This document shows, one piece after another, positions 14,987-57,729 of a DNA stretch of 64,000 bases. Each line of letters starts with the position of its first letter. Position 1 is the first letter of the stretch. The position numbers were made by a program, and so were the translations under genes. Source of the DNA: Octopus vulgaris (lineage: Eukaryota); NCBI GenBank assembly GCA_951406725.2, contig OX597823.1, forward strand, positions 64,604,001 to 64,668,000. The letters run 5' to 3'. The notes under the pieces were generated by a model that worked only from the letters and a program-made list of their open reading frames with translations, was not told where the DNA came from and did not search any database.

Positions 14987-15549
14987 AAAATCGAAGTCGA
15001 TCAACATCAATGGAAATTGTAGCTGTGATACCAGTGCCGGTGGCACGTAAGCGAATCATCCAATCGCGGCCGTTGCCAGCGTCGCCCCGACTAGCCTCCG
15101 TGCCGGTGGCACGTAAAAAGCACCATCTGATCGTGGCTGTTTCCAGCCTCGCCTGGCTCCCGTGCCGGTGGCACGTAAAAAGCATCATCCGTCCGTGGCC
15201 GTTTGCCAGCCCCGTCTGGCACCTGTGCCAGTGGCACGTAAAAAGCACCCACTACACTCATGGAGTGGTTGGCGTTAGGAAGGGCATCCAGCCATAGAAA
15301 CATTGCCAGATCAGACTGGGCCTGGTGCAGCCTTCTGGCTTCCCAGACCCCAGTTGAACCGTCCAACCCATGCCAGCATGGAAAGCGGACGCTAAATGAT
15401 GATGATGATATATATAAGGGCATCCAGCTGTAGAAACACTGCCAGATTTGACTGGGCCTGATGAAGCCTTCTGGCTTCACAGACCCCAGTAGAACCGTCC
15501 AACCCATGCTAGCATGGAAAACAGACGCTAAACGATGATGATGATGATG
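14987..15549 (+). mobile_element. two tandem RTE-type 3' ends with (GAT)n tails
   Basis: gtgccggtggcacgtaaaa repeats, then ggcgttaggaagggcatccag...catggaaagcggacgctaaa(gat)n. A second short copy lies at 15417-15549. Confidence 0.75.
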
Positions 15550-15611
15550 ATATATATCTTTATATATATAAAACTGAGAATGTGTGTCTGTCTGTCTGTC
15601 TGTCTGTTTGT

Positions 15612-15905
15612 TTCCCTAAAACTTGAGAACTACACAACCAATTCCATTCAAATTTTACACATACCTTACTTAGGGTGCGGGGAGTGTCATCGTCAAAAAC
15701 AATTTTTAACTTTTTGCCTAGGGCGAGCCCACAGCAATATCATATCTTCTCCACTACGATTCCCTAAAACTTGAGAACTACACAACCAATTCCATTCAAA
15801 TTTTACACATGCCTTACTTAGGGTCCATGTAGTTTCATGGGCAAAAAAAAATGTTCAACTTCTTGCCTAGAGCGAACCCATAGCAATATCATATCTTCTC
15901 CACTA
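15612..15905 (+). repeat. about 148-bp tandem duplication inside the Helitron 5' arm
   Basis: ttccctaaaacttgagaactacacaacc...atcttctccacta occurs twice. Confidence 0.9.
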
Positions 15906-16190
15906 TTTCAGTGTTATGTATTAAAAGTGAAACAAAAACATTTCTCTATTTTATGTCAGATACTTTCACTTTAAAATAATAATAATAACAATTCAATTAT
16001 ATGTAGTAAGTAATAATTAAAATCAAACTAAAGTGTAATATAATCGTAACATAACAAAAGTAAAAATAGCAATTGGTATAAAATTGCATCAATGACTTGA
16101 ACTTGAATAAGTGGTTTCACATGAATGAGAATAAATTAAAAATAAAATTAGCATGCAGAAATGGAATAGTCCAGATGAATAATAAAAAAT

Positions 16191-16244
16191 TATATTAAAG
16201 AAAAGACTATTGTCTATAAAGTATACAATGTAGAGAAAAAAGGT
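16191..16244 (+). pseudogene. decayed Tx1-type ORF1 fragment, left part
   Basis: Reads YIKEKTIVYKVYNVEKKG, comparable to YDKRTIVYRVCANERKR in the unit-1 ORF1. Confidence 0.6.
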
Positions 16245-16260
16245 CGTTTTTTTCGGCTCC

Positions 16261-17996
16261 GTGTTTTTTTTTCGGCTCCTGAAAATTCGGTAAAAAAGAA
16301 CAAAAAAGGTTGTTGTTGTTGTGGAAATTCTGAACGGCGTTGACGCGGTTTCGCGTTTCGCTCGTTCAGCGCGTTACACTTTTTCTGTTTTGGCGGCCGT
16401 TTTCGGTCTGTCAGACAGAAGGAAATGGACTATGAGTCTTTAACAGACTTGTCCACGACGGATGAGGAACTGGAACAGGCAATTGCAGTGAAGCTGATGG
16501 AGGAAAAGGCTGGAGTTTTTGAGTCTTTATCAGACTTGCCTATGTCTGAGAAGGAGCTAGAAATGGCAGCAAGGAAATTGGAAGACAAGCTGAGTTATAC
16601 CTATGCCGGTGTAACCAAGAAGGCGGAAGAGAAAGGGGTCGACATGGTCAAGTTGCCAAGTTACCAGAAATACATGAAAAAGGAAAGCGGTGAGGTGGAA
16701 CTATCACCGACACCCAGGAGAAAAGAATGGTATGATAAGAGGACCATTGTTTACAGGGTGTGCGCAAACGAAAGGAAGAGGGTAGAAGTTGTATCCATGG
16801 AATGGATAGAGGAAGCCCTGCGAAGAACTGAGGAGGAAATAAATTTTCTGACTCGAGGATCCAAGTACGGGACCGTAGTTGTGCATTTTAAAAGTGAATC
16901 GGCAGCGAGGAAGATGGCAGCGAAGGCGGTGAAGTCGGAAAAGGTAACACTGTTACCTACGTATTTAAACAGGAGGATTACACGAATAAGGGTGGAGGGA
17001 GTGCCACCAAACGTGGAGGCAGAATGGATTGTGGCGGCTGTGATCAGCGGCCACGAGGACGAAGTGGATATTCTCCATGCCTCGGTTAAGTCCGAGGGCT
17101 GGAGAGGCGTAACAGTGGAGCTGAACGTACAGGCAGAGACCGAGGTACTGGTGGACCTGACGGAAAGCATCAGACTGGGAGAAGTGATCATGAGAGTGTG
17201 GGTGGAGGGCAGGGCTCCACGTTGTTACAAGTGTGGCCTGAGGGGTCACATAAGAGCCTTCTGCCCTCCCCCAGGGAAAGAAATGGATCCTGAACCAGAG
17301 AGAGAGAAGCAGAAACCAGAGGAGAAGGAAACAGAGGAAGAGAATACACAGAAATGGAAGGAAGCTGGAAGTAAGAGGAAGAGAAGAATATGTGGAAAAA
17401 AAGAAAATAATATGGAACTCCAATCTACCCCAAAACCTCCCACACCCTCTGAGTCCCACCCTATCCATGCAGACATTGAACCCACCCGCTCCCCCCCAAC
17501 AAGAAAACAAAAGAAAAAAAAGAATACACACACACAAGAGATTGAAATCGAACCCAGGCCGTACATTTGTACTATGACTGAACAGAGGGAAGTTAAAAGT
17601 CTAATGGAAGAGTATAAACGGTATGATGTTGGAGAGACTAGGTATGCTGTGATTGAAAAAAAGAACATAGGTGAGTTTATGGGGAGGTGTGAAAGGGAGA
17701 ATTGGGAGGTGAAAGATATAAGAATGAGCGATGAATTCGTGGAAAATATGAATGAGTATTTCGGAGTAAGAATGGATATGGAATTTATTCGTATTGGCAA
17801 AGAACATTCAAGTGACTATGAAAAACAAAGGACAGGTAAGTGATGCTGACGGACGGGGCCGTTGGTATCGCTTTCATTTTATCATTTTTTTCGTTTAACA
17901 CTTCATGTTCATATAGTTTAATTATAATGTTCTATGTCCCCATGTTTTGTTATGTCCGCCATTCTTCGTAGCCCCTTAGTGGGTAATAAAGAAATA
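16261..17996 (+). mobile_element. ORF1-only (HAL1-like) Tx1-clade element, unit 1
   Basis: CpG-rich 5' UTR, single ORF1, U-rich 3' UTR, tail gccccttagtgggtaataaagaaata. Flanked by cg(t)7-8cggctcc duplication (16245-16260 / 17997-18013). Confidence 0.85.
16425..17843 (+). CDS. Tx1/L1-type ORF1 gag-like protein (RRM-like region + CCHC knuckle), intact, 472 aa
   Basis: CYKCGLRGHIRAFC (CX2CX4HX4C) preceded by VEGR; colinear with the ORF1 upstream of the RT in unit 4. Confidence 0.85.
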   Translation: MDYESLTDLSTTDEELEQAIAVKLMEEKAGVFESLSDLPMSEKELEMAARKLEDKLSYTYAGVTKKAEEKGVDMVKLPSYQKYMKKESGEVELSPTPRRKEWYDKRTIVYRVCANERKRVEVVSMEWIEEALRRTEEEINFLTRGSKYGTVVVHFKSESAARKMAAKAVKSEKVTLLPTYLNRRITRIRVEGVPPNVEAEWIVAAVISGHEDEVDILHASVKSEGWRGVTVELNVQAETEVLVDLTESIRLGEVIMRVWVEGRAPRCYKCGLRGHIRAFCPPPGKEMDPEPEREKQKPEEKETEEENTQKWKEAGSKRKRRICGKKENNMELQSTPKPPTPSESHPIHADIEPTRSPPTRKQKKKKNTHTQEIEIEPRPYICTMTEQREVKSLMEEYKRYDVGETRYAVIEKKNIGEFMGRCERENWEVKDIRMSDEFVENMNEYFGVRMDMEFIRIGKEHSSDYEKQRTGK

Positions 17997-19727
17997 CGTT
18001 TTTTTTCGGCTCCTGAAATTCGGTAAAAAAGAACAAAAAGCGTTGTTGTTGTTGTGGAAATTCTGAACGGCGTTGACGCGGTTTCGCGTTTCGCTCGTTC
18101 AGCGCGTTACACTTTTTCTGTTTTGGCGGCCGTTTTCGGTCTGTCAGACAGAAGGAGATGGACTATGAGTCTCTAACAGACTTGTCCACGACAGATGAGG
18201 AACTGGAACAGGCAATTGCAATGAAGCTGATGGAAGAAAAGGCTGGAATTTTCGAGTCTTTATCAGACCTGCCTACGTCTGAGAAAGAGCTAGAAATGGC
18301 AGCAAGGAATTTGGAAGAGAAGCTGGGTTATACCTATGCCGGTGTAACCAAGAAGGCGGAAGAGAAAGGGGTAGACATGGCCAAGTTGCCAAGTTACCAG
18401 AAATACATGAAAAAGGAAAGCGGTGAGGTGGAACTATCACCGACACCCAGGAGAAAAGAATGGTATGATAAGAGGACCATTATTTACAGGGTGTTCGCAA
18501 ACGAAAGGAAGAGGGTAGAAGTTGTAACCATGGAATGGATAGAGGAAGCCCTGCGAAGAACTGAGGAGGAAATAAATTTTCTGACTCGAGGATCCAAGTA
18601 CGGTACCGTAGTTGTGCATTTCAAAACTGAGTCTGCAGCGAGGAAGATGGCGGCGAAGGCGGTGAAGTCAGAAAAGGTAACCCTATTACCTACGTATTTA
18701 AACAGGAGGATTACACGAATAAGGGTGGAGGGAGTGCCACCAAACGTGGAGGCAGAATGGATTGTGGCGGCTGTGATCAGCGGCCACGAGGACGAAGTGG
18801 ATATTCTCCATGCCTCGGTTAAGTCCGAGGGCTGGAGAGGCGTAACAGTGGAGCTGAACGTACAGGCAGAGACCGAGGTACTGGTGGACCTGACGGAAAG
18901 CATCAGACTGGGAGACGTGATCATGAGAGTGTGGGTGGAGGGCAGGGCTCCACGTTGTTACAAGTGTGGCCTGAGGGGTCACATAAGAGCCTTCTGCCCT
19001 CCCCCAGGGAAAGAAATGGATTCCGAACCAGAGAGAGAGAAGCAGAAACCAGAGGAGAAGGAAACAGAGGAAGAGAATACACAGAAATGGAAGGAAGCTG
19101 GAAGTAAGAGGAAGAGAAGAATATGTGGAAAAAAAGAAAATAATATGGAACTCCAATCTACCCCAAAACCACCCACACCCTCTGAGTCCCACCCTATCCA
19201 TGCAGACATTGAACCCACCCGCTCCCCCCAACAAGAAAACAAAAGAAAAAAAAGAATACACACACACAAGAGATTGAAATCGAACCCAGGCCGTACATTT
19301 GTACTATGACTGAACAGAAAGAAGTTAAAAGTCTAATGGAAGAGTATAAATGGTATGATGTTGGAGAGACTAGGTATGCTGTGATTGAAAAGAAGAACAT
19401 AGGTGAGTTTATGGGGAGGTGTGAAAGGGAGAATTGGGAGGTGAAAGATATAAGAATGAGCGATGAATTCGTGGAAAATATGGATGAGTATTTCGGAGTA
19501 AGAATGGATATGGAATTTATTCGTATTGACAAAGAACATTCAAGTGACTATGAAAAACAAAGGACAGGTAAGTGATGCTGACGGACGGGGCCGTTGGTAT
19601 CGCTTTCATTTTATCATTTTTTTCGTTTAACAATTCATTTTCATAAAGTTTAATTATAATGTTCTATGTCCCCATGTTTTGTTATGTCCGCCATTCTTCG
19701 TAGCCCCTTAGTGGGTAATAAAGAAAT
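17997..19727 (+). mobile_element. ORF1-only Tx1-clade element, unit 2 (close paralogue of unit 1)
   Basis: Colinear with unit 1 over the full length, with scattered substitutions and the same tail. Confidence 0.85.
18158..19575 (+). pseudogene. ORF1 with one frameshift in a C-run near 19225
   Basis: ORFs 18158..19309 and 19306..19575 together match unit-1 ORF1. The run is C6 here versus C7 in unit 1, so it could be a sequencing error. Confidence 0.85.
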
Positions 19728-19747
19728 CACATGGAGGAAATCAATTT

Positions 19748-21510
19748 GCGTGTTGTTATCTGTGACTAGACGTTGAAATTTTGTTGTGTAAAGTGATTAA
19801 TATCGCGCGAGGCGTTTGCCTCCACGTTTGGAAACCTTCCGAAGAAGGTGAATTGACCCTCTAGTCATGGCGACTTACGCGGGGGTCACGGGAAAGAAAA
19901 ATAATGATTCGGCAATAATCGTGAAGGATGTTTTCTTTGAGAAGAGTAAACTCAAAGAATATGAAAAACTATTCAAAAGGGAGGGTGATAGCGTGAAGCT
20001 AATCCCCCCCGCGAAAGCAAAAGAGGACAAAGAAAACAAGACTGTAACGTATAGAACCCAGGAAAAAGTACAAAGAAACTGGCAAGAGTGGAGATAGCAG
20101 AGATCGAAAAATGTCTGGGAGACATAATGGATAAATCGACCTACGTGAGTAGAGGAAAAAATTTGGTACGGTGGAGGTGAGATGTGCAACGGAAGAAATT
20201 GCAGCCTCACTGGCTACCACTGTTCTAAGAGCGGAAACATTTATAATGTGGCCCTCATACAAGGGAAGAAGAGGGGTCCGGGTTAAAATCCCGAATATAC
20301 CCCCAGAAGTAAAAACAGAATGGCTGGCAACAGCTATTCTAGGAGCAGCAGAAGAGGAAGTGGAGGTGGAATCCTTTAAGGAGTCCAACGCAGTAAACTG
20401 GAGAGGATATGGGGTAGAACTGTGTTTGATGGCCACAAAAGAGGACATTGAAAGGTTCCCCTATAGAATAGAAATTGAAGACGAGAAAACCCTCAGTGTA
20501 ATTGTAGAGGGAAGAAAGCCAAACTGCTACTTGTGCGGGACAAGGGGGCACATTAAAAAAGAGTGCCCGTTATACGAATTCGTAGCGGAGTATGAGAAGG
20601 AAATTGAAGAAAAGAAGAATACGGTAAATGAAAAAGAAAACATAGAAAAGGAGACAAAACAACAAGAGAAAGGAAATAATAAGTCAACGAAGGAAAAAGA
20701 AATAAAAGAAAAGAAAGAAATAGAACCAAAACAGAGTCAGGAAAAGAAAAAGGAAAAAGAAACAACAGGAAAAAAACAAGAGAGAGATCAGAACCAAACG
20801 AAAAGAAAAGACGGCACACAAAAAGAAAAAGAAAAGGAACATAAAACACGAGAGAAAGAGAGAACAGACAAAGAACCAAAAAGACAAGAGAAGGAAGGAG
20901 AAAGAAAAGAAGGCAAAAAGAGAGAAAGAGAGAAACAAAGAGAGGAGAACAAGGAAGAAATAAGCCCGAAAAGAAAAACGAGAGAAAACGTAGGACGGAA
21001 ACAAGATTACTACAAGTTAATAACCTTCCATTTCAGCCCTGAAATGAAGGAATTGACATGTAGTACGGAGGGACATGTGTGGGTCAACAGGATGACTGAT
21101 CAGTGGCAGGAGACTGCTCTGATCCCCGAAGAAAGAGTCGCTGAGTTCCTCAGAGCAGCTGGAGAGAGTGTAATTTTTTACACGGGTGTTCGAATGAAAG
21201 AGCGGCTGCCTGAGGGCTCAGTGATTGACTTTAGAGACTTGAAAGGTATTATGGAATACGTGTGAGATTGTGAGAGGAGAGAGAAGAAAGAAGAGAAAAA
21301 AGAAAAAAAAAAAATTGTGAACTATATGTGACGAAAATGTAACCTCTCGATTCCGGGGATCGAGTGGGCATTTGCATCTCATTGTAAATATTCTTTCATT
21401 TGTCATTTTTATTTTTATTTTTTCCTTTTCTTGTCATTTCGCTTTCTTATTTTAAGTTCCCCGATTGTATTGTCCCCTCTATGTTCGCCCCTTGTGGGTA
21501 GTAATAAAAT
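19748..21510 (+). mobile_element. divergent ORF1-only Tx1-clade element, unit 3
   Basis: Flanked by the 20-bp duplication cacatggaggaaatcaattt (19728-19747 / 21511-21530); tail gccccttgtgggtagtaataaaat. Confidence 0.85.
19867..21265 (+). pseudogene. ORF1 (frameshifted near 20070-20160) with CCHC knuckle and K/E-rich linker
   Basis: MATYAGV start (compare YTYAGV in unit 1), GTVEV, IPPEVKTEWL, VEGRKPNCYLCGTRGHIKKEC. Confidence 0.8.
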
Positions 21511-21739
21511 CACATGGAGGAAATCAATTTATTGCGTTATTAGTAAGTTGATATATATTTTTGCTCTCATACTACTTATCTCTGTTATTATATACTGTTG
21601 GTCTACCTTTTTTGTCCATTGTTGTCTAACGGACGAAGTCAACCTTCGCGCGAAGACTTCGCGTTGGTGTTCCCCCTCAGTGGGGGAAAACTACAATCAA
21701 TTTAGATTACCAAAGGCTTGTTAAAGCCATTTGTTCAAG

Positions 21740-23122
21740 ATGGAGTCCCCCATCACTTATTCGCCCGTGACGAGCGAGGATGAATACCCGGCGTTGTCGC
21801 CAAGTAAAAAAGAGGCGTTGTCGCCAAGAAAAAAAGAGGCGCTGTCGCCGAAGAAAAAAGAGGCGGCGTCGCCCAAGAAAATGGAAAAACCAGTACCAGC
21901 ATCAACTCCAGCAAAAAAATTCGCTGAAGTGGCTGGGAAGAAAATTAAAAAAAAATTAACGTGGACAACCTGGGAAAACATGCAGACTGTGTGTAAAAAA
22001 GAGGGCACAGAAGTAACCTGTGGCTTCAAACGCCCAAAAATACAGGAGGATATTTCGAATAGGAGAATAATCTATAAGACATTCAGTATAACAAACAGAG
22101 CAATCCAAAAAATAGAGGAGAAAAAGATTGAAAACTGCTTAAAGCCAATAATGGATAAAATTACGTATATCAATCGAGGAAAAAGAAATACGGCACAGTG
22201 GAGGTGAGATTCACGTCAGAGGAGGTAGCGAAGAAGCTATCCATGGAACCCATCAAAGCGGAGGATATTGTTCTCCTACCCCTGTATAAAGGCAAGAGAA
22301 CTTCCAAAATCACTATGAACAACATCCCGCCAGAGCGGATGCCGAAGTCCTAGTGGCAGCAGTTATGGTAGGCCTGGAGGAAAAAATAAACATCCTCCAG
22401 GCCACCGTGGAGAAGAAGAATTCTGGAAAGGGCAAAAAGATAATAATAGCCATACAAGCAGAAGTACAAACCCTGGAAGAGATCCCAGAGACTCTAAGGA
22501 TAAGTGAAGAAGATGAAAGAGTCACAGTCTTCGTAGAGGGCAGAAAGCCGAGGTGCTTCGGCTGCGGTAAGAAGGGGCATGTAAGGGCGGAATGCCAGCC
22601 CCAACCCAAACCGCAGGAAGCACCTAAGCCAAAAGGAAAAAGAAGACAATGTGTCACCAGAAGCAGCGTCAGACGGCCCAGAAGGGAAGACTGAAGGTGT
22701 GGAGGTGATGGTAACAGCAGAACCAGCGGCGGAGGAAAAAAAGAGCGAGGAAAAGATAAATGAGGAGGGGTGGGCAAAAATTATCGGAAAAAAAAAAAGA
22801 AAAACGGAAACCACCCCTCCCAGAGTAATTTTAAAAAAGAAAAAAGAGTCAATGAACTCATATATGGCCGTAAAGCATCAAATAGCAGACTCGGAAACGT
22901 GTTGGCAGCCATGGCCAATGTGAGAGAGTAGAGAAAAAAAATGACTTTGTAATTTACAAAATAGACCGGAAGGATTACGGGCGGATAAAGTCAGAATTCT
23001 TCCATGACGTAGGCCCACTTAGGTTGGATGTAACATCTCCACATATATTCGAGGGCCTACGTCAGACTCCCCCACGAGGCCCAGAAAAAGAGAAGGAAGA
23101 AGAAGAAAAACCGAACCACTGA
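21740..23122 (+). pseudogene. LINE ORF1 with several frameshifts, N-terminal SPKK repeats and CCHC knuckle
   Basis: Pieces 21731..22207, 22353..22694 and 22651..22923; VEGRKPRCFGCGKKGHVRAEC. End coordinate approximate. Confidence 0.8.
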
Positions 23123-23136
23123 TATAAAGGTAAGTA

Positions 23137-26100
23137 ATGGATTACATTTATGTTGGTTGTTTAAATGTGCGCGGCCTGGGAGCAGGCTGGAAGCAAGGTC
23201 GCTTCCTGCATGATATCAGGTCGCGTAATTTAGATGTTATTGTTGCTACAGAAACCCGGCTAGAGGGGCCAAGAGGTCTACTCCCGCTGTTTGACGGCTA
23301 CGAGAGTTTTTTCTCTCCTGGCAGTCCTACAGGCGGGAGTGGGGTGTTGGTCCTATTAAAAAGAAACCGGGTTTCTGAGAAAAAGTTAATTTTTGCAGAT
23401 CCAGAAGGTAGGCTGGTCGTCATGGATTTGACGTTCAGTAATGGTAAAGTTATCAGACTGGTTGCAATTTACGCACCCAACCATACAGGGCAAAGTGATT
23501 ATTTTCGTGAACTAGAAAACTTTCTTGGTACTTCGCATTCATTAGTGGTGCTAGGAGACTTTAACACAATTTGCAAAGCGGATGTGGATTGTGTTGGCTC
23601 GTGTCCAGATAGAAAAGGCAACAGTGGCTTCATGGAACTGCTAAGCCGCTTTGAGCTAGCAGATCCTTATAGGCTGGAATTTCCGAACGCTCCATTGTGG
23701 ACATGGTCAAACAGCGACGGATCTTCCAGGTCGTATTCTAGATAGAATACTAATTAGAAAAGTAGACAGTAAAATAGCTAAGTGTCCACAGTTTTACCCG
23801 ATCAGCTACAGTGATCATAAAATGGTCACTTGTAAGCTTGACATAGATAAGGTTAAAAATAGAGGATCCGGTTACTGGAAACTTAATACGTCCCTTTTGG
23901 CGATTAAGGAGTACAAAGACCGGATTAGGAATATAATTCAGAGGGCACTATCTGGTACCATCATTAATAACAAATGGTGGTACGCCCTCAAACGAGCCAT
24001 CAAGTTTGAGTCTATTAGATATAGCATAGGAGTAGTGGCTAGAGAGGCTAGAAGGGAAACTACTCTAGTTAAGGAATTAGAGGAAGCCATGAAAACTGGC
24101 TCTGCGGCTCAGGTGGCGGCCAAGAGACTGGTGTTAAACCAGCACCTCGAGGCCAAACACATGGGCTGCATTGTCAGGGCTAGAATCCGTCATATGGGAT
24201 GTGAAGGAATCAACGCCGTGAGATGGGCCCGAGTGGTGGAAGCTCAGCATGGTAACGATGCCACGATTCGATCTTTGACGAACCAACAAGGTGAGTTGAT
24301 AAACGAACCCGAGGAGATGTGTGAGGCCTTTCAGGAGCACTTCGCTCAGCTTTTCGGTGAGTGCGGCGGACTGGATAGGAGGAGGGCCTTTACGGACCTA
24401 CTCGACGGTCTGCCGCGCTTATCGGGGCGAGATGCGGAGGGCTGTGAAGGGCCAATCACGCCTGAGGAGGTGGTTGAGGCAATGGCGGACTGCGGCGCGG
24501 GCAAGGCGCCGGGTTTGGATGGTCTACCCTATGAGTTATATAAGAGTATGCCAGACTTGTTCGGGCACCTACTGGCGGAGGTCTACGCGAACTGGCAGCA
24601 GAACGGGCTTATACCCAGATCTGTGCGCCGGGGAGTAGTGACTCTCGTCAGAAAGGACCCGAGCAAGGGGGAGTGCATTGATAATTTCAGGCCCATCACT
24701 CTGCTAAACACAGAGTTGAAGATTTTGGCCAAAGTGTTATCGAAAAGATTGGCGTGTGTCGCGGATGGTCTGATCGGAGGGGCACAGACATGTGCCGTTC
24801 CGGGCAGATCCATTCAGGATAATCTCCATCTAATGCGGTACACTATAGAGGGGTTTAATAGTGATTCTGGCAAGGGTGGGGCACTGGTCCATTTAGACCA
24901 ATCTAAAGCTTTTGATAGGGTCGACCATCGTTACCTGGTATCTGCCCTGGCACAGTTCGGGCTGAGCCTTGGATTCCTCAGGTGGATTATCGAAATTTAT
25001 GATAACATCGACTCGGTAGTTCGGGTGAACGGCTTCTTGTCGAAGCCGTTCAAAATCAAACGCTCGGTTCGTCAAGGGTGTCCGCTCTCCCCGCTTTTGT
25101 ACGTGATGGCTCTTGAGCCATTACTGCGAAAACTGAGCGGCATCCCGAGACAGCCAGGTAATGGAAAATCAGTGTCAGCGTACGCGGATGACATCACCAT
25201 CATCGTAACCGAAATGGACCACCTATGTAAAGTAGGCAAGGCCATAGAGGTGTACGAGACGGTGACAGGAGCAAAAGTTAATCGCGAAAAGTCAGTCGGC
25301 TTGCAACTCGGCACCTGGAGAGGCAAGTCGATGCCTCCTGACAGCGTCGTGGGACGTTGGACGGAGGGTCCGATTAAACTGCTAGGGGTCTGGTTCGGTC
25401 CAGACCTCCAAATAGAGAAGAATTGGGGCGAGGTAACGAGCAAGGTGGCTGCAGTAGCCAAGACCTGGTCTTGGCGGTGGCTATCCCTGAAAGGGAGGGC
25501 GGAGGTGGCCAATGTGTTTATCGCATCGGTTATCACCTACCGCCTTTCCGTCGTTCCTTGCCCTGATTCGTGGTTGATCAAGTTGGAAAGACAGCTCTTC
25601 TACTTCTTGTGGAAGGGCGGGAAACCACTGTGAAACGCTCTACTTGCTGTCAACAACCGTTAAAGGGTGGGCTAGGGATGCCTTGGCTGATGATGCGCAG
25701 ACATGCGCTGAGGTTAAGACATCTGTGGCTCTACCTGGATGGTGAACGGGTGTGGTCTTCGCTAGCAAAACTGATGTTTCCCAAGTTCACTAGTTTCGGT
25801 GGATGGGAAACCTGGCTGAGTCGTAGATCGAAACTTGGTACTTGGTACACGGAGTGTCGCAAGGGCTCTCCTGCTATTCCGTCGCTCGGGCAACGCCTGC
25901 GGTGGGGGTTCCACCACTTTCTTCTATAGAGGGTTGGTAGAGGCGGAATGTGAAGATACCTTGGGGGAAACCCTAGGTCTCGACGATAATCAGCTGGCCA
26001 GTCTGTTCCGACGTACGTTCGAGCCAAGGACACTGGACAACTTCCAGAAGTCTCTGGCATGGCAATGCTACAGAGGAGCTCTACCTGTTCGGGATAAACT

Positions 26101-26532
26101 CGCAAGGCACGGTGGCCAAGACAGTCCGATATGTCCAAGATGCGGGCGGGATAGGGAAACCGTCCCGCACGCGATTGTTCATTGTCCGGACGTGTCTGAG
26201 GTGTGGGTTTATGCCGAACACCTGTTGTCAGGTACACGAAGAGTACAGCTGTCGACTGAGTCGATTACAAAAATTGACCCACCGGATTTCCTCGTGAATG
26301 AAGGTAAGTTTCGTTTTCTCGTTGTAGTAGCAATGCGAAAGAGGTGATATGGAAGACGAGAATGAAAGGTTTACAGTCAGGCAAGTTCATCTCCGGCCCT
26401 GGTTTGATGAATTATTTCATCTTTCACCTGAAAAGGAAGATAGGGCTGGAGAGAATATGCCTGACTAGGAGAGCGTATGAAGAACGATGGAAGGATGTAG
26501 CACGGAAGTTGCGAATGAAAGTTACAACATAA
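23137..26532 (+). pseudogene. LINE ORF2: AP endonuclease + reverse transcriptase + C-terminal CCHC finger (about 4 frameshifts)
   Basis: APE motifs LNVRG, ATET, IYAPN, LGDFN, SDH; GYWKLN; RT motifs KAPGLDG, FRPITLLN, LDQSKAFDRV, SVRQGCPLSP, YADD; CPRCG..ETVPHAIVHC. Confidence 0.95.
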
Positions 26533-26780
26533 ATGTAATACCAAGTGCAACCAAAAGTATCAGTGGGGAGGCGGGGCTCGTGGGGTCCGAGCTAAACCCG
26601 CACCCACTCCACCCGTAATGTCTTCCGGTCTGTCCTATCATTCGATTTCTGTCCATTTATTGTTATTCATGAAAATTTTTAAACCCGATTTATTGTAAAA
26701 ACCCATTCGTTTGTCTGACCCCATCATCAGAATGTATTGTCCCATCTGTGTTCGCCCCTTGTGGGTAATAATAAAACAAC

Positions 26781-27062
26781 ATGGAGGAAAGCACCTTCGA
26801 AAAGTGTCTTGGTGCGACAATGAAAGATATCTAATCAGAGGCGGTAAATTCACTACAATAGAAGTCAACGGAGCGTGCAAGGGAGTACTCGACTCAAACC
26901 TGCAAAGTGGAAATATTTTATTTTTACCTTTATATCTGGGACGTAGGACGTCCCGGAAAAAAATTTAAAATGCTCCCCACCCAGAAGTAGAGGTAGGCTG
27001 GATTGTAGCCACACTTCTATACAAGAGGGAGGACAAGATACAATTGATCGAAATTACAAGAG
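26781..27062 (+). pseudogene. decayed Tx1-type ORF1 fragment, right part
   Basis: MEESTFEKCL.../YLIRGGKFTTIEV...ILFLPLYLGRRTSRKKI*NAPHPEVEVGWIVATLL aligns by eye with FLTRGSKYGTVVV...TLLPTYLNRRITRIRVEGVPPNVEAEWIVAAVI. Confidence 0.8.
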
Positions 27063-27267
27063 ACGGGCTAACAATTCCAAGTCTGTTATATATTTTGAGT
27101 ATTGTTATCACTAGCGATATCAAGATATAACTTTGTATTTTGTATTTTATGTGTAGATGTATATATATAGATGTACATGTACATGTACACATATATATAC
27201 ACATATATATACACATATATACATGCACTAGCACTATGACCCGGCAACGACGGGTCTTTAATGCTAG

Positions 27268-27304
<37 letters not shown>

Positions 27305-28453: not shown

Positions 28454-29055
28454 TGTGTACACCTATACACATATACAAGCACATACATAGATACACACAC
28501 TCACACACACACATATATATACATATACGTACTCATATACAAATGAACTAATACATACAAAGAATAAAATGAAAATACATACCTATTTAAATATACATAC
28601 ACTTATACAGAAATGGATACATATATATGCATATATACACACATATCAGAATATATGCATATATATATATGCACATATATACATATAGATATTCATACAC
28701 ATGCACAAATGCATACATACACATATATATATATATATATATCTCAATAAAGCAAATGTGTTTGCAAGCTCGAATGTAAGCATATAGCTAATCCATAACG
28801 GCAAAAAAGTAAACACTTGTATTAGATTAAATCTGCCAGAGAGATTATGAAAGCAATTTTACTGACATGTGTACAGTAATAATTAATAATTAATAATAAT
28901 AAAAATAAAAATAAAATAAATCTAAGGTAGAGGTAATCAGGAGCAAAAAGAAGTTTTCAGGTGCAGGATTAGAGAACCAAAGTAGTCATTAGATGGCAAC
29001 AACTTCAATAATTTGTAAAAGATAGTTAAGCTGTAAAATATGAGTGCAATGGACT

Positions 29056-29452
29056 GTGAGCTGGCAGAAACGTTAGCATGCTGGGCGAAATGCTTAGCGG
29101 TATTTCGGCTGCTGTTACGTTGTGAGTTCAAATTCCACCGAGGTTGACTTTGTCTTTCATCCTTTCGGGGTCGATAAATTAAGTACCAGTTACGCACTGG
29201 GGTCGATGTAATCGACTTAATACCTATGTCTGTGGTTGTTTGTCCCCTCTATGTTTAGCCCCTTGTGGGTAATAAAGAAATATAAATAGGTATTAAATCT
29301 GTCTTTGTGTTCCGAGTTCAAATTCTGCCAAGGTTGACTTTGCCTTTCATCCTTTCGGTGTCGATAAACTAAGTACCAGTTGCATACTGAGGTCGATCTA
29401 ATCGACTGACCCTTCCTCAAAAATTTCAGGCCTTGTGCCTAGAGTAGAAAAA
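29056..29452 (+). mobile_element. SINE family B dimer; first unit has a Tx1-type tail
   Basis: gagctggcagaaacgttagc...gagttcaaattcc head. Unit 1 ends tgtcccctctatgtttagccccttgtgggtaataaagaaata (29282). Unit 2 restarts at ggtatt (29289) and has a different tail. Confidence 0.85.
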
Positions 29453-56169: not shown

Positions 56170-57022
56170 ATGTTTTGCTTGTTTCAGTCATTGGACTGGG
56201 GCCATGCTAGAGTACCAACATGAAGGGGTTAGGGAAACAAGTTACCCGCCAGTACTTATTTTGTTTAAGCTTGGTACTCAGTCTATTGTTTCTTTTGTTG
56301 AACTGCTAGGCTATAGGAATGGAAACAAACCAACACTGGTTGTCAAGTGGTGATGCTGGACCAGACACCACTTGACAGTGAACTGGCAGAAACATTAGCA
56401 CGCCGGGCAAAATGCTTAGTGGTATTTCATCTGCTGTTACATTCTGAGTTCAAATTCCACCAAGGTTGACTTTCCCTTTCATCACTTCGGGGTCGATAAA
56501 TTAAGTACCAGTTACACACTGGGATCAATGTAATCGACTTAATCCGTTTGTCTGTACTTGTATGTCCTCTCTGTGTTTAGCCCCTTGTGGGTAGCAAAGA
56601 AACAGGTATTTCATCTGCCGTTACGTTTTGAGTTCAGATTCCACCAAGGTAAACTTTCCATTTCATCACTTCGGGGTCGATAAATTAAGTACCAGTTACG
56701 CACTGGGGTTGATGTAATCGACTTAATTTCTTTGTCTGTCCTTGTTTGTCCCCTCTATGTTTAGCCCCCTGTGGGCAATAAAGAAATAGATGCTGGAACA
56801 GACACAATGACATAAAAGCACACACACACACACACACACACATACACACACACACACATATACACACATGCATACACATGACAGGCTTCCAGGCTTCTTT
56901 CAGTTTCCATCTACTAAATCTACTCACAAGGTTTTAGTAAAAAACTTGCCCTAGTGTCTACACAGTGGGACTGAACCTGGAACCATGTGGTTGGGAAGCA
57001 TGCTTCTTACCACACTGCCATA
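56170..57022 (-). mobile_element. older SINE family A interrupted by a SINE B dimer
   Basis: Tail at 56170-56368, head at 56880-57022. Confidence 0.7.
56369..56788 (+). mobile_element. SINE family B dimer, both units with Tx1-type tails, 17-bp TSD
   Basis: Tails ttagccccttgtgggtagcaaagaaac and ttagccccctgtgggcaataaagaaata. TSD gatgctgga(c/a)cagacac at 56352-56368 / 56789-56805. Confidence 0.85.
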
Positions 57023-57729
57023 CCTTGTAACTCCATTACCAATTTTTTAAGAATGCAAGATGTGAAGTAAGGGATATTTAGCTGTTAATTGTAACAAGTC
57101 AAGCAACCAGATAGAGGCATTCTCTTTGGCTCAGAGTGGACAGTAGGAGGTGGAAAACATGTTAGAAGGGGAGAAATAAAATGGGAAGGAATGGTAGGAA
57201 AAGATAGAGTAAATGTATAGGGAAAATGTTGAAATAGAGAATTAAAAGGAAGAGGAACAACCATGGTCTATGTTTTAAAAGCACTCATACACCCTGTTAA
57301 GGGGATGGCATTAGGAAGGGCATCCAGCTGAACCTGGCAGATCTCTCTAGCTTGTCTGGTCTTGTGGAACCATCTAACCCATGCCAGCATGGAAAAAGGA
57401 CATTAAAAGATAATGATGACAATGATGATGATGATGATAAATGTGCGTGTGAGTATGTATTTATATAAGTAGATAAAAGGGATGGAAGAGGTTATTGTGT
57501 ACTACAATTGTTTCAAAAATCACTATGTGTGTTACATAAGATTTTGAATATCCATAACTGTTTGGTGTATTTTCTCATTAGGTACACATGACTTTTATAA
57601 TTGAAAATAATCTTTACTTAATGCATTGATTAATGAATTTTACTGATTAATTCTTCAGTCATCTAAGTTTCTATACAAGCTGTTGTGCTAGAGACTAACA
57701 AATCACAATAACTCGATTAATCCTTCTAC

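Follow-up and report, generated by a model that had tools for sequence, protein, structure and literature searches.

Site-preferring long interspersed nuclear elements (LINEs) need a target that is present in many copies, and the origin of new targets is an open question. The closest described systems, as far as the available text of the report on them goes, are Tx1 families that insert into other transposons: Tx1 in Tx1D (a piggyBac element), Tx1-Mar and SINEU in Mariner-N4_AMi, and Tx1-9_AMi in a Harbinger element, with long terminal repeat elements also serving as targets (PMC4494074). A family was regarded there as target-specific if >20% of its copies were flanked by one target repeat. 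Retroposed DNA is also known to enter Helitrons and to be multiplied with them, as in the bat element HelibatN424 (available portions of PMC4224331). Here we describe a locus of Octopus vulgaris, lying in a window of 64,000 nucleotides (contig OX597823.1; coordinates are counted from the first letter of this stretch, and all features discussed lie on its + strand), in which an element with Helitron-type ends (15557..27267) encloses four retroelements. On balance we favour the explanation that the host is a 1.2-kb multicopy Helitron-ended element carrying a 370-bp fragment of the first open reading frame (ORF1) of a LINE, and that the four retroelements were probably inserted into it serially by a site-preferring enzyme of the L1/Tx1 type.

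The locus resembles those of the Tx1 targeters (PMC4494074, available text) in that an L1/Tx1-type LINE and its dependent partners sit at fixed places of a multicopy non-autonomous DNA transposon, in the tandem copies around a target-site duplication and in the use of two preferred sites per host (the second is only a lead here). It differs in its host, which has rolling-circle ends (the word 'Helitron' occurs 0 times in that main text), in its partners, which encode ORF1, in its target, which is a piece of LINE ORF1, and in that specificity was measured in those families whereas it is suggested by single-locus junctions here. The cargo of bat Helitrons, according to the available text (PMC4224331), consists of host mRNA that carries poly-A and duplications and was inserted a single time, whereas the cargo here is a piece of LINE ORF1 that lacks a tail and is probably reused for further insertions. 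Both Tx1 families that target transposons and retro-inserts amplified by Helitrons have thus been published already. The Helitron as a target is new to the literature searched, in which no paper on a Helitron-targeting LINE was found (Repbase, Dfam and the subscription literature lay outside this search and may hold such a case). A 2026 paper on O. vulgaris repeats lists L1-Tx1 and Helitron families and, in the text available, makes no mention of nesting (PMC13282606). The precedent of Tx1L in Tx1D, on which an earlier note on this DNA had drawn, is correctly cited (PMC4494074, available text).

The host element and its empty form

The 5' end of the host (15557..15611) has the form A15556|TC15557, followed by a TA run, AAAACTG and a (GTCT)n/GTTT microsatellite; its (GTCT)3+ run at 15586 is the sole one in the window, and the 5' pattern is likewise single there. 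The 3' end (27225..27267) consists of a GACCCG/CGGGTC hairpin (27239-27257) within an ACTAGCA/TGCTAGT inverted repeat, then CTAG (27264-27267) with T as the next base. Both ends are present where the earlier note had placed them, enclosing the whole stack. The terminal 44 nt have a folding energy of −11.7 kcal/mol (z = −5.1), and none of 200 shuffled sequences was as stable. A loose pattern (6-bp hairpin plus CTRRT) has 6 matches in the window versus a mean of 0.9 over 40 shuffles and is therefore, taken alone, modest to weak evidence; a strict scan for hairpin ends with a 7-bp stem did not pick up the 27267 terminus. The element thus has the 5' TC, the 3' CTRR and the GC-rich hairpin near the 3' end that characterize non-autonomous Helitrons. 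Its flanks are a single TA tract split at A|T, and a short duplication could hide in such a tract. The 3' end (27225-27268) is also nearly palindromic, the hairpin plus CTAGT being legible on either strand.

Inside these ends lie two 148-bp tandem central repeats, 89% alike (15612..15905), an AT-rich left body (15906..16181) that is multicopy in contigs of public runs X4 and X8, the target region with the stack, and a right body with a mixed TA/CA microsatellite (27081..27224, compared with other copies to 27147). In other copies, joints that jump back 143–147 bases suggest longer arrays of the 148-bp repeat, and its number appears variable. This layout recalls Hel-2 of Lepidoptera and the oyster Helitron/Cg_HINE, which, in the available text of the reports (PMC4344730, PMC7992393, PMC7492417), share the 5' TC, the 3' hairpin plus CTAG, the A|T site, a CTGT/GTCY run near the 5' end, central tandem repeats and a length of about 1.1–1.2 kb; no LINE stack is reported in them in that text. 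A GTCY microsatellite and central tandem repeats are also found in the Helentron-type HINE group (PMC7492417, available text). Unlike DINE-1 and Cg_HINE of that group, as far as the available descriptions go, the element has no perfect inverted repeat of ≥7 bases between its ends: no perfect non-simple inverted match of 7–12 bases was found between 15557-15640 and 27190-27267, mismatched ones not being searched.

Other copies of the host were sought in contigs of public runs, with the regions 15500-17990 (left) and 26450-27147 (right) as queries; 15500-15619 was masked as a repeat in the left comparison, and the right comparison ended before the 3' terminus. Part of the left half is contained in 20 of the 24 listed public runs, from 10 studies; there was no RNA run among these listed holders, and the organism labels of the runs are not to be taken as species. 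The earlier note had proposed to join the two halves, and the joined form exists: contigs diverge from the window before 26779 (11 in X1) or 26782 (34 in X1, 23 in X4 and 19 in X8) and rejoin it at 16224-16242. Such joins were found in three of the four compared runs, X5 having none among the matches listed. From the left side, 18 X4 contigs depart after 16242 with similar initial letters, as a mixed group (agreement 0.59). The start of the right half at 26779 stands as proposed, and the left half ends at 16242 rather than 16244. Since the joined copies carry about 11 extra letters between the halves (AAGATTTGAAC in X1), the empty element is 1,186 bp long, and about 11 bp of target have been lost at this locus. 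The left and right halves are therefore supported as one multicopy element, of which the contigs of three studies contain the empty form in numerous variants.

The summed contig depth over the host halves, a quantity that does not equal copy number and gives no per-locus counts, exceeds that over the enclosed units: 148k–1,328k vs 18k–165k for unit A in X4, 49k–239k vs 1.6k–11k for unit A in X8 and 198k–1,234k vs 15k–79k for the 3' part of unit C in X4. In X1 the ranges overlap (120k–1,739k for the host halves vs 10k–194k for the C 3' part). This excess agrees with mostly empty hosts, as an indication and not a measure of their share. X22 and X23, two runs of raw reads whose organism label is that of X1, gave 46 and 87 matching reads out of 12.9 million each, mostly <90% alike.

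A different composition of the host is conceivable, in which a single repeat forms the body while one of the termini, CTAG or TC, is foreign or incidental, so that the host would not be one Helitron. The termini were indeed seen in this window only (15500-15619 being masked and 27148-27267 lying outside the comparison), and between the right body and the 3' end there are 77 bp of microsatellite. We nevertheless consider this quite improbable: both termini point the right way and divide a single TA tract at A|T, in other copies the 148-bp unit has GTCT runs in front of it (seen as loose ends before 15760-15761), and the layout is that of published non-autonomous Helitrons (PMC4344730, PMC7992393, available text).

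Origin of the landing site

The earlier note had taken the target for Helitron sequence. Instead, both sides of the landing site derive from a LINE ORF1: the stack interrupts a decayed piece of ORF1, about 370 bp long (16182-16242 plus 26779 to about 27070), without knuckle and without tail, which is part of the multicopy host. A word-based protein search gave no ORF1 relatives, whereas a full HMMER scan found 150, from which 6 were dropped because their matches were spread over several stretches, mostly the short knuckle region. Among the 144 independent homologues retained, 115 match the right half (26779-27140) at E<1e-3, and a profile from which the window sequence was left out recovers 26819-27064 with an independent E-value (iE) of 2.7e-17. 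In a tblastn search of the window, the ORF1 of unit A1 matches 26828-27049 (32% identity, E = 6e-8). The right piece (26779..27072, multicopy) covers profile positions 72-173 and the left piece (16182..16242, with loose ends before 16181-16184) positions 50-69. The score of the 14 residues at the left end was reached by none of 105,512 background peptides; 20 homologues touch the left end at E<1, 19 of these also match the right part, and in 12 of the 19 the spacing fits the 11-letter gap to within 3 codons. At 26863 other copies hold about 10 extra letters, and alignments of the present copy are gapped there.

Because the protein similarity is collinear across the stack and the remnant is also carried by other host copies, the host has likely amplified the LINE DNA that now serves as the target. 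The suggestion that a Helitron may carry LINE DNA is thus supported, but for the 370-bp remnant only. To the left of 16181-16184, 12 X4 contigs and 4 X23 reads carry different letters which, by eye, prolong the ORF1 likeness; an ORF1 donor family therefore probably exists. In X23, a related repeat is present besides these 4 reads of a possible donor.

A target made of ORF1 sequence that shares the orientation of all four units raises the idea that the remnant pairs with the ORF1 RNA of an incoming element. Such homology-guided self-targeting was rejected for want of DNA similarity and seems to us very improbable: the remnant has no blastn match (word 7, E 0.01) to A, B or C, its likeness to their ORF1s is at the protein level only (32–37%), and it is the 3' tail, not ORF1, that joins the target.

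The right edge of the remnant is a possible second and older landing site (27072..27080), which we present as a lead only. In other copies tail-like letters are joined to it, with joints from 26777/26779 to 27080 at depths of 296 and 79 in X1 and 724 (2 contigs) in X4. The tail letters reach 27080 via 4–6 letters that match the host, which places the tails at about 27072, and ORF1 similarity stops at 27061-27073 in most of the best alignments. This coincidence of the tails with the end of ORF1 suggests that the remnant arrived by insertion at ~27072 followed by trimming, rather than by random capture. The short sides of these joints measure 20–23 letters, however, and the tail is shared with a SINE-like repeat (SINE, short interspersed nuclear element). 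An extended history could be built on this lead, in which a LINE at ~27072 left the ORF1 piece, the Helitron spread it, a TATA-like word in it made a new site and filled Helitrons moved the stacks; we hold this reciprocal niche building to be rather unlikely.

Stacked units and their junctions

The stack comprises four units from three families, arranged head to tail in the orientation of the remnant. Unit A1 (16243..17994) is ORF1-only, with an open frame of 472 aa (16425-17843) and a CCHC knuckle. Unit A2 (17995..19727) belongs to the same family (47 differences in 1,733 aligned columns), its frame being cut to 383 aa. Unit B (19741..21510) represents a second ORF1-only family, with two frame changes and no trace of ORF2 in domain and similarity searches. 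Unit C (21524..26778) is a full-length but broken LINE with an ORF1 at about 21740-22900, which contains zf-CCHC, and an ORF2 at about 23137-26520, in which APE endonuclease, reverse transcriptase and zf-RVT domains are recognized (PF03372, PF00078, PF13966). The nearest solved structures to its endonuclease are L1 endonucleases (E 2e-8 to 2e-6). Atlas look-alikes of the A1 ORF1, which is homologous to that of C, have CCHC, RRM and ZCCHC3-type RNA-binding domains (scores 0.90–0.92), and ORF1s with an RRM-like domain plus CCHC fit Tx1 (PMC5203782). Unit C would thus work like a Tx1 element, its L1/Tx1-type assignment coming from domains and architecture; none of its listed homologues is named Tx1, and one of its closest named reverse transcriptase relatives is from a cuttlefish. 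Elsewhere, 11 ORF2 relatives in Patella caerulea (P0074: 33% identity to C) have the near-consecutive tags SNE40_003393-003415 and likely form a tandem array of a related LINE in this limpet.

Neither A1, A2 nor B has any ORF2 similarity. With an ORF1, no ORF2 and the 3' tail of a partner, A and B have the properties of ORF1-only LINEs and resemble HAL1, HeT-A and Ag-Sponge, which come from the L1, Jockey and CR1 clades and depend on autonomous LINEs (PMC5786205, PMC5753468, available text). Unlike these, as they are described there, the present ORF1-only elements comprise two families, distant from the neighbouring LINE and stacked inside another transposon. The A1 ORF1 is just 23–40% identical to those of B and C, so that A was not derived from C itself.

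The junctions are informative. B and C are bounded by a direct repeat of 12–13 bp (CACATGGAGGAAA), with copies at 19728..19740 and 21511..21523 and a third that opens the right piece of the remnant at 26779; from the comparison of these three junctions it is likely a target-site duplication. CATGGAGGAAA occurs 3 times in the window, always immediately behind the tail of a unit (A2, B and C). A single 3' tail is common to all four units, and in A2, B and C, one unit per family, it precedes (C)ACATGGAGGAAA, that is, the same base of the target. Repeated use of one base with a likely target-site duplication thus holds at this locus for three units but not for A1. B (19741-19747) and C (21524-21530), though of different families, both start with TCAATTT behind the direct repeat, and we take this start to resemble an initiator motif. 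The 5' end of A1 carries a 16-bp direct repeat instead; it could have arisen by duplication of the bases that open A2, or it could be a family trait.

These junctions bear on the idea that no real targeting took place, with one or a few founding insertions, and with hitch-hiking on the host or segmental or tandem duplication as the source of the filled copies elsewhere. There is precedent for Helitrons multiplying retroposed cargo (PMC4224331, available text), the remnant is itself a case of carriage, and A1 and A2 share letters; A-to-A head-to-tail joints (17990 to 16245) reach a depth of 656 in X4, which also suggests that A arrays are common elsewhere. But three families with ORF1s so dissimilar end at one point with the direct repeat between them, which requires at least three separate insertions in one spot of a 1.2-kb element, and we give this idea little probability.

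It is also conceivable that the elements aim at transcription starts, the TATAAA at 16215-16220 (two codons of the remnant's left piece) acting as a cryptic promoter and the host being one of several kinds of target. The start of A follows this TATAAA at a distance of 30 bases, and in the empty form the CACATGG site follows it at 38; A1 ends at a non-CATGG sequence, so that position may outweigh letters, and an upstream cue would fit a stack that grows leftward. Yet the 686-bp left half, at 30% GC, holds three TATAAA words, and one of them would fall 25–40 bases upstream by chance in ~7% of cases; A2, B and C share a single end point even though it lies 38 rather than 30 bases from TATAAA; and no TATA precedes the possible second site in the remnant-bearing form. 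We regard transcription-start targeting as unlikely, though not negligibly so.

Proposed order of events and its implications

The serial insertion that we favour would have proceeded as follows. An ORF1 fragment would have entered an ancestral host copy and then have been multiplied by rolling-circle transposition. A C-like ORF2 would nick the target just before (C)ACATGG and prime on the shared A-rich tail, leaving the 12–13-bp duplication; this target-primed reverse transcription step is suggested by established LINE biology together with the junctions. A and B, lacking ORF2, would borrow the C-like enzyme in trans via the shared tail. Because only the left copy of the duplication retains upstream context, the stack probably grew leftward, with C first, then B, A2 and A1. 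The number of frame defects increases to the right (0 in A1, 1 in A2, 2 in B, and 2 in ORF1 plus 4 in ORF2 of C), which fits this direction. The ~11 bp of target would have been removed by the insertion of A2 or by a later deletion.

Several observations weigh against this reconstruction. The evidence for the insertion site is that of this locus, and the host termini are likewise those of the window, for the reasons of masking and query range given above. The left junction and the A1/A2 junction have no CATGG repeat, which means that the insertion of A1 made use of another sequence. Three SINE-like copies in the window that lie outside the host end with the same tail, which therefore does not fix the target. 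The gradient of frame damage is based on four units. A1 and A2 share 6 letters unlike the X4/X8 majority (among the matches listed), which makes a local duplication possible. Finally, the left piece of the remnant is weak alone (profile iE 0.32), and 7 of the 19 two-sided homologues are non-collinear.

The SINE-like repeat occurs at 29055-29281, 56378-56604 and about 56605-56787, the latter two copies directly adjoining, and is likely mobilized by the LINE machinery that serves the stacked units. Its ends account for the tail matches at 29236, 56558 and 56742, which are therefore not truncated LINEs.

The nested stack and the empty multicopy host are direct observations. If serial insertion is true, a target consisting of LINE DNA was spread by a second class of transposon, which would give a new target a traceable origin. 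With its short defined site, its empty as well as filled copies and its several client families, such a system would allow a test of whether the endonuclease recognizes a sequence or a promoter. Annotation is affected too: within 11.7 kb such a stack conceals a 1.2-kb repeat, and the host would wrongly be labelled a fragment of a LINE.

As to the wider occurrence of the host, no second copy of its halves was found within the window, and a 24-base motif from the right half had no match in metagenome and viral contigs. Rfam returned 25 weak matches, mostly TA repeats, none at the gathering score, and ARAGORN found no tRNA; as judged from Rfam, the target corresponds to no known RNA gene. The repeat into whose GAT/TA tail the host itself is inserted (15030-15555) has tandem units of 62 bp and 136 bp, and similar sequence lies near 57300-57440.

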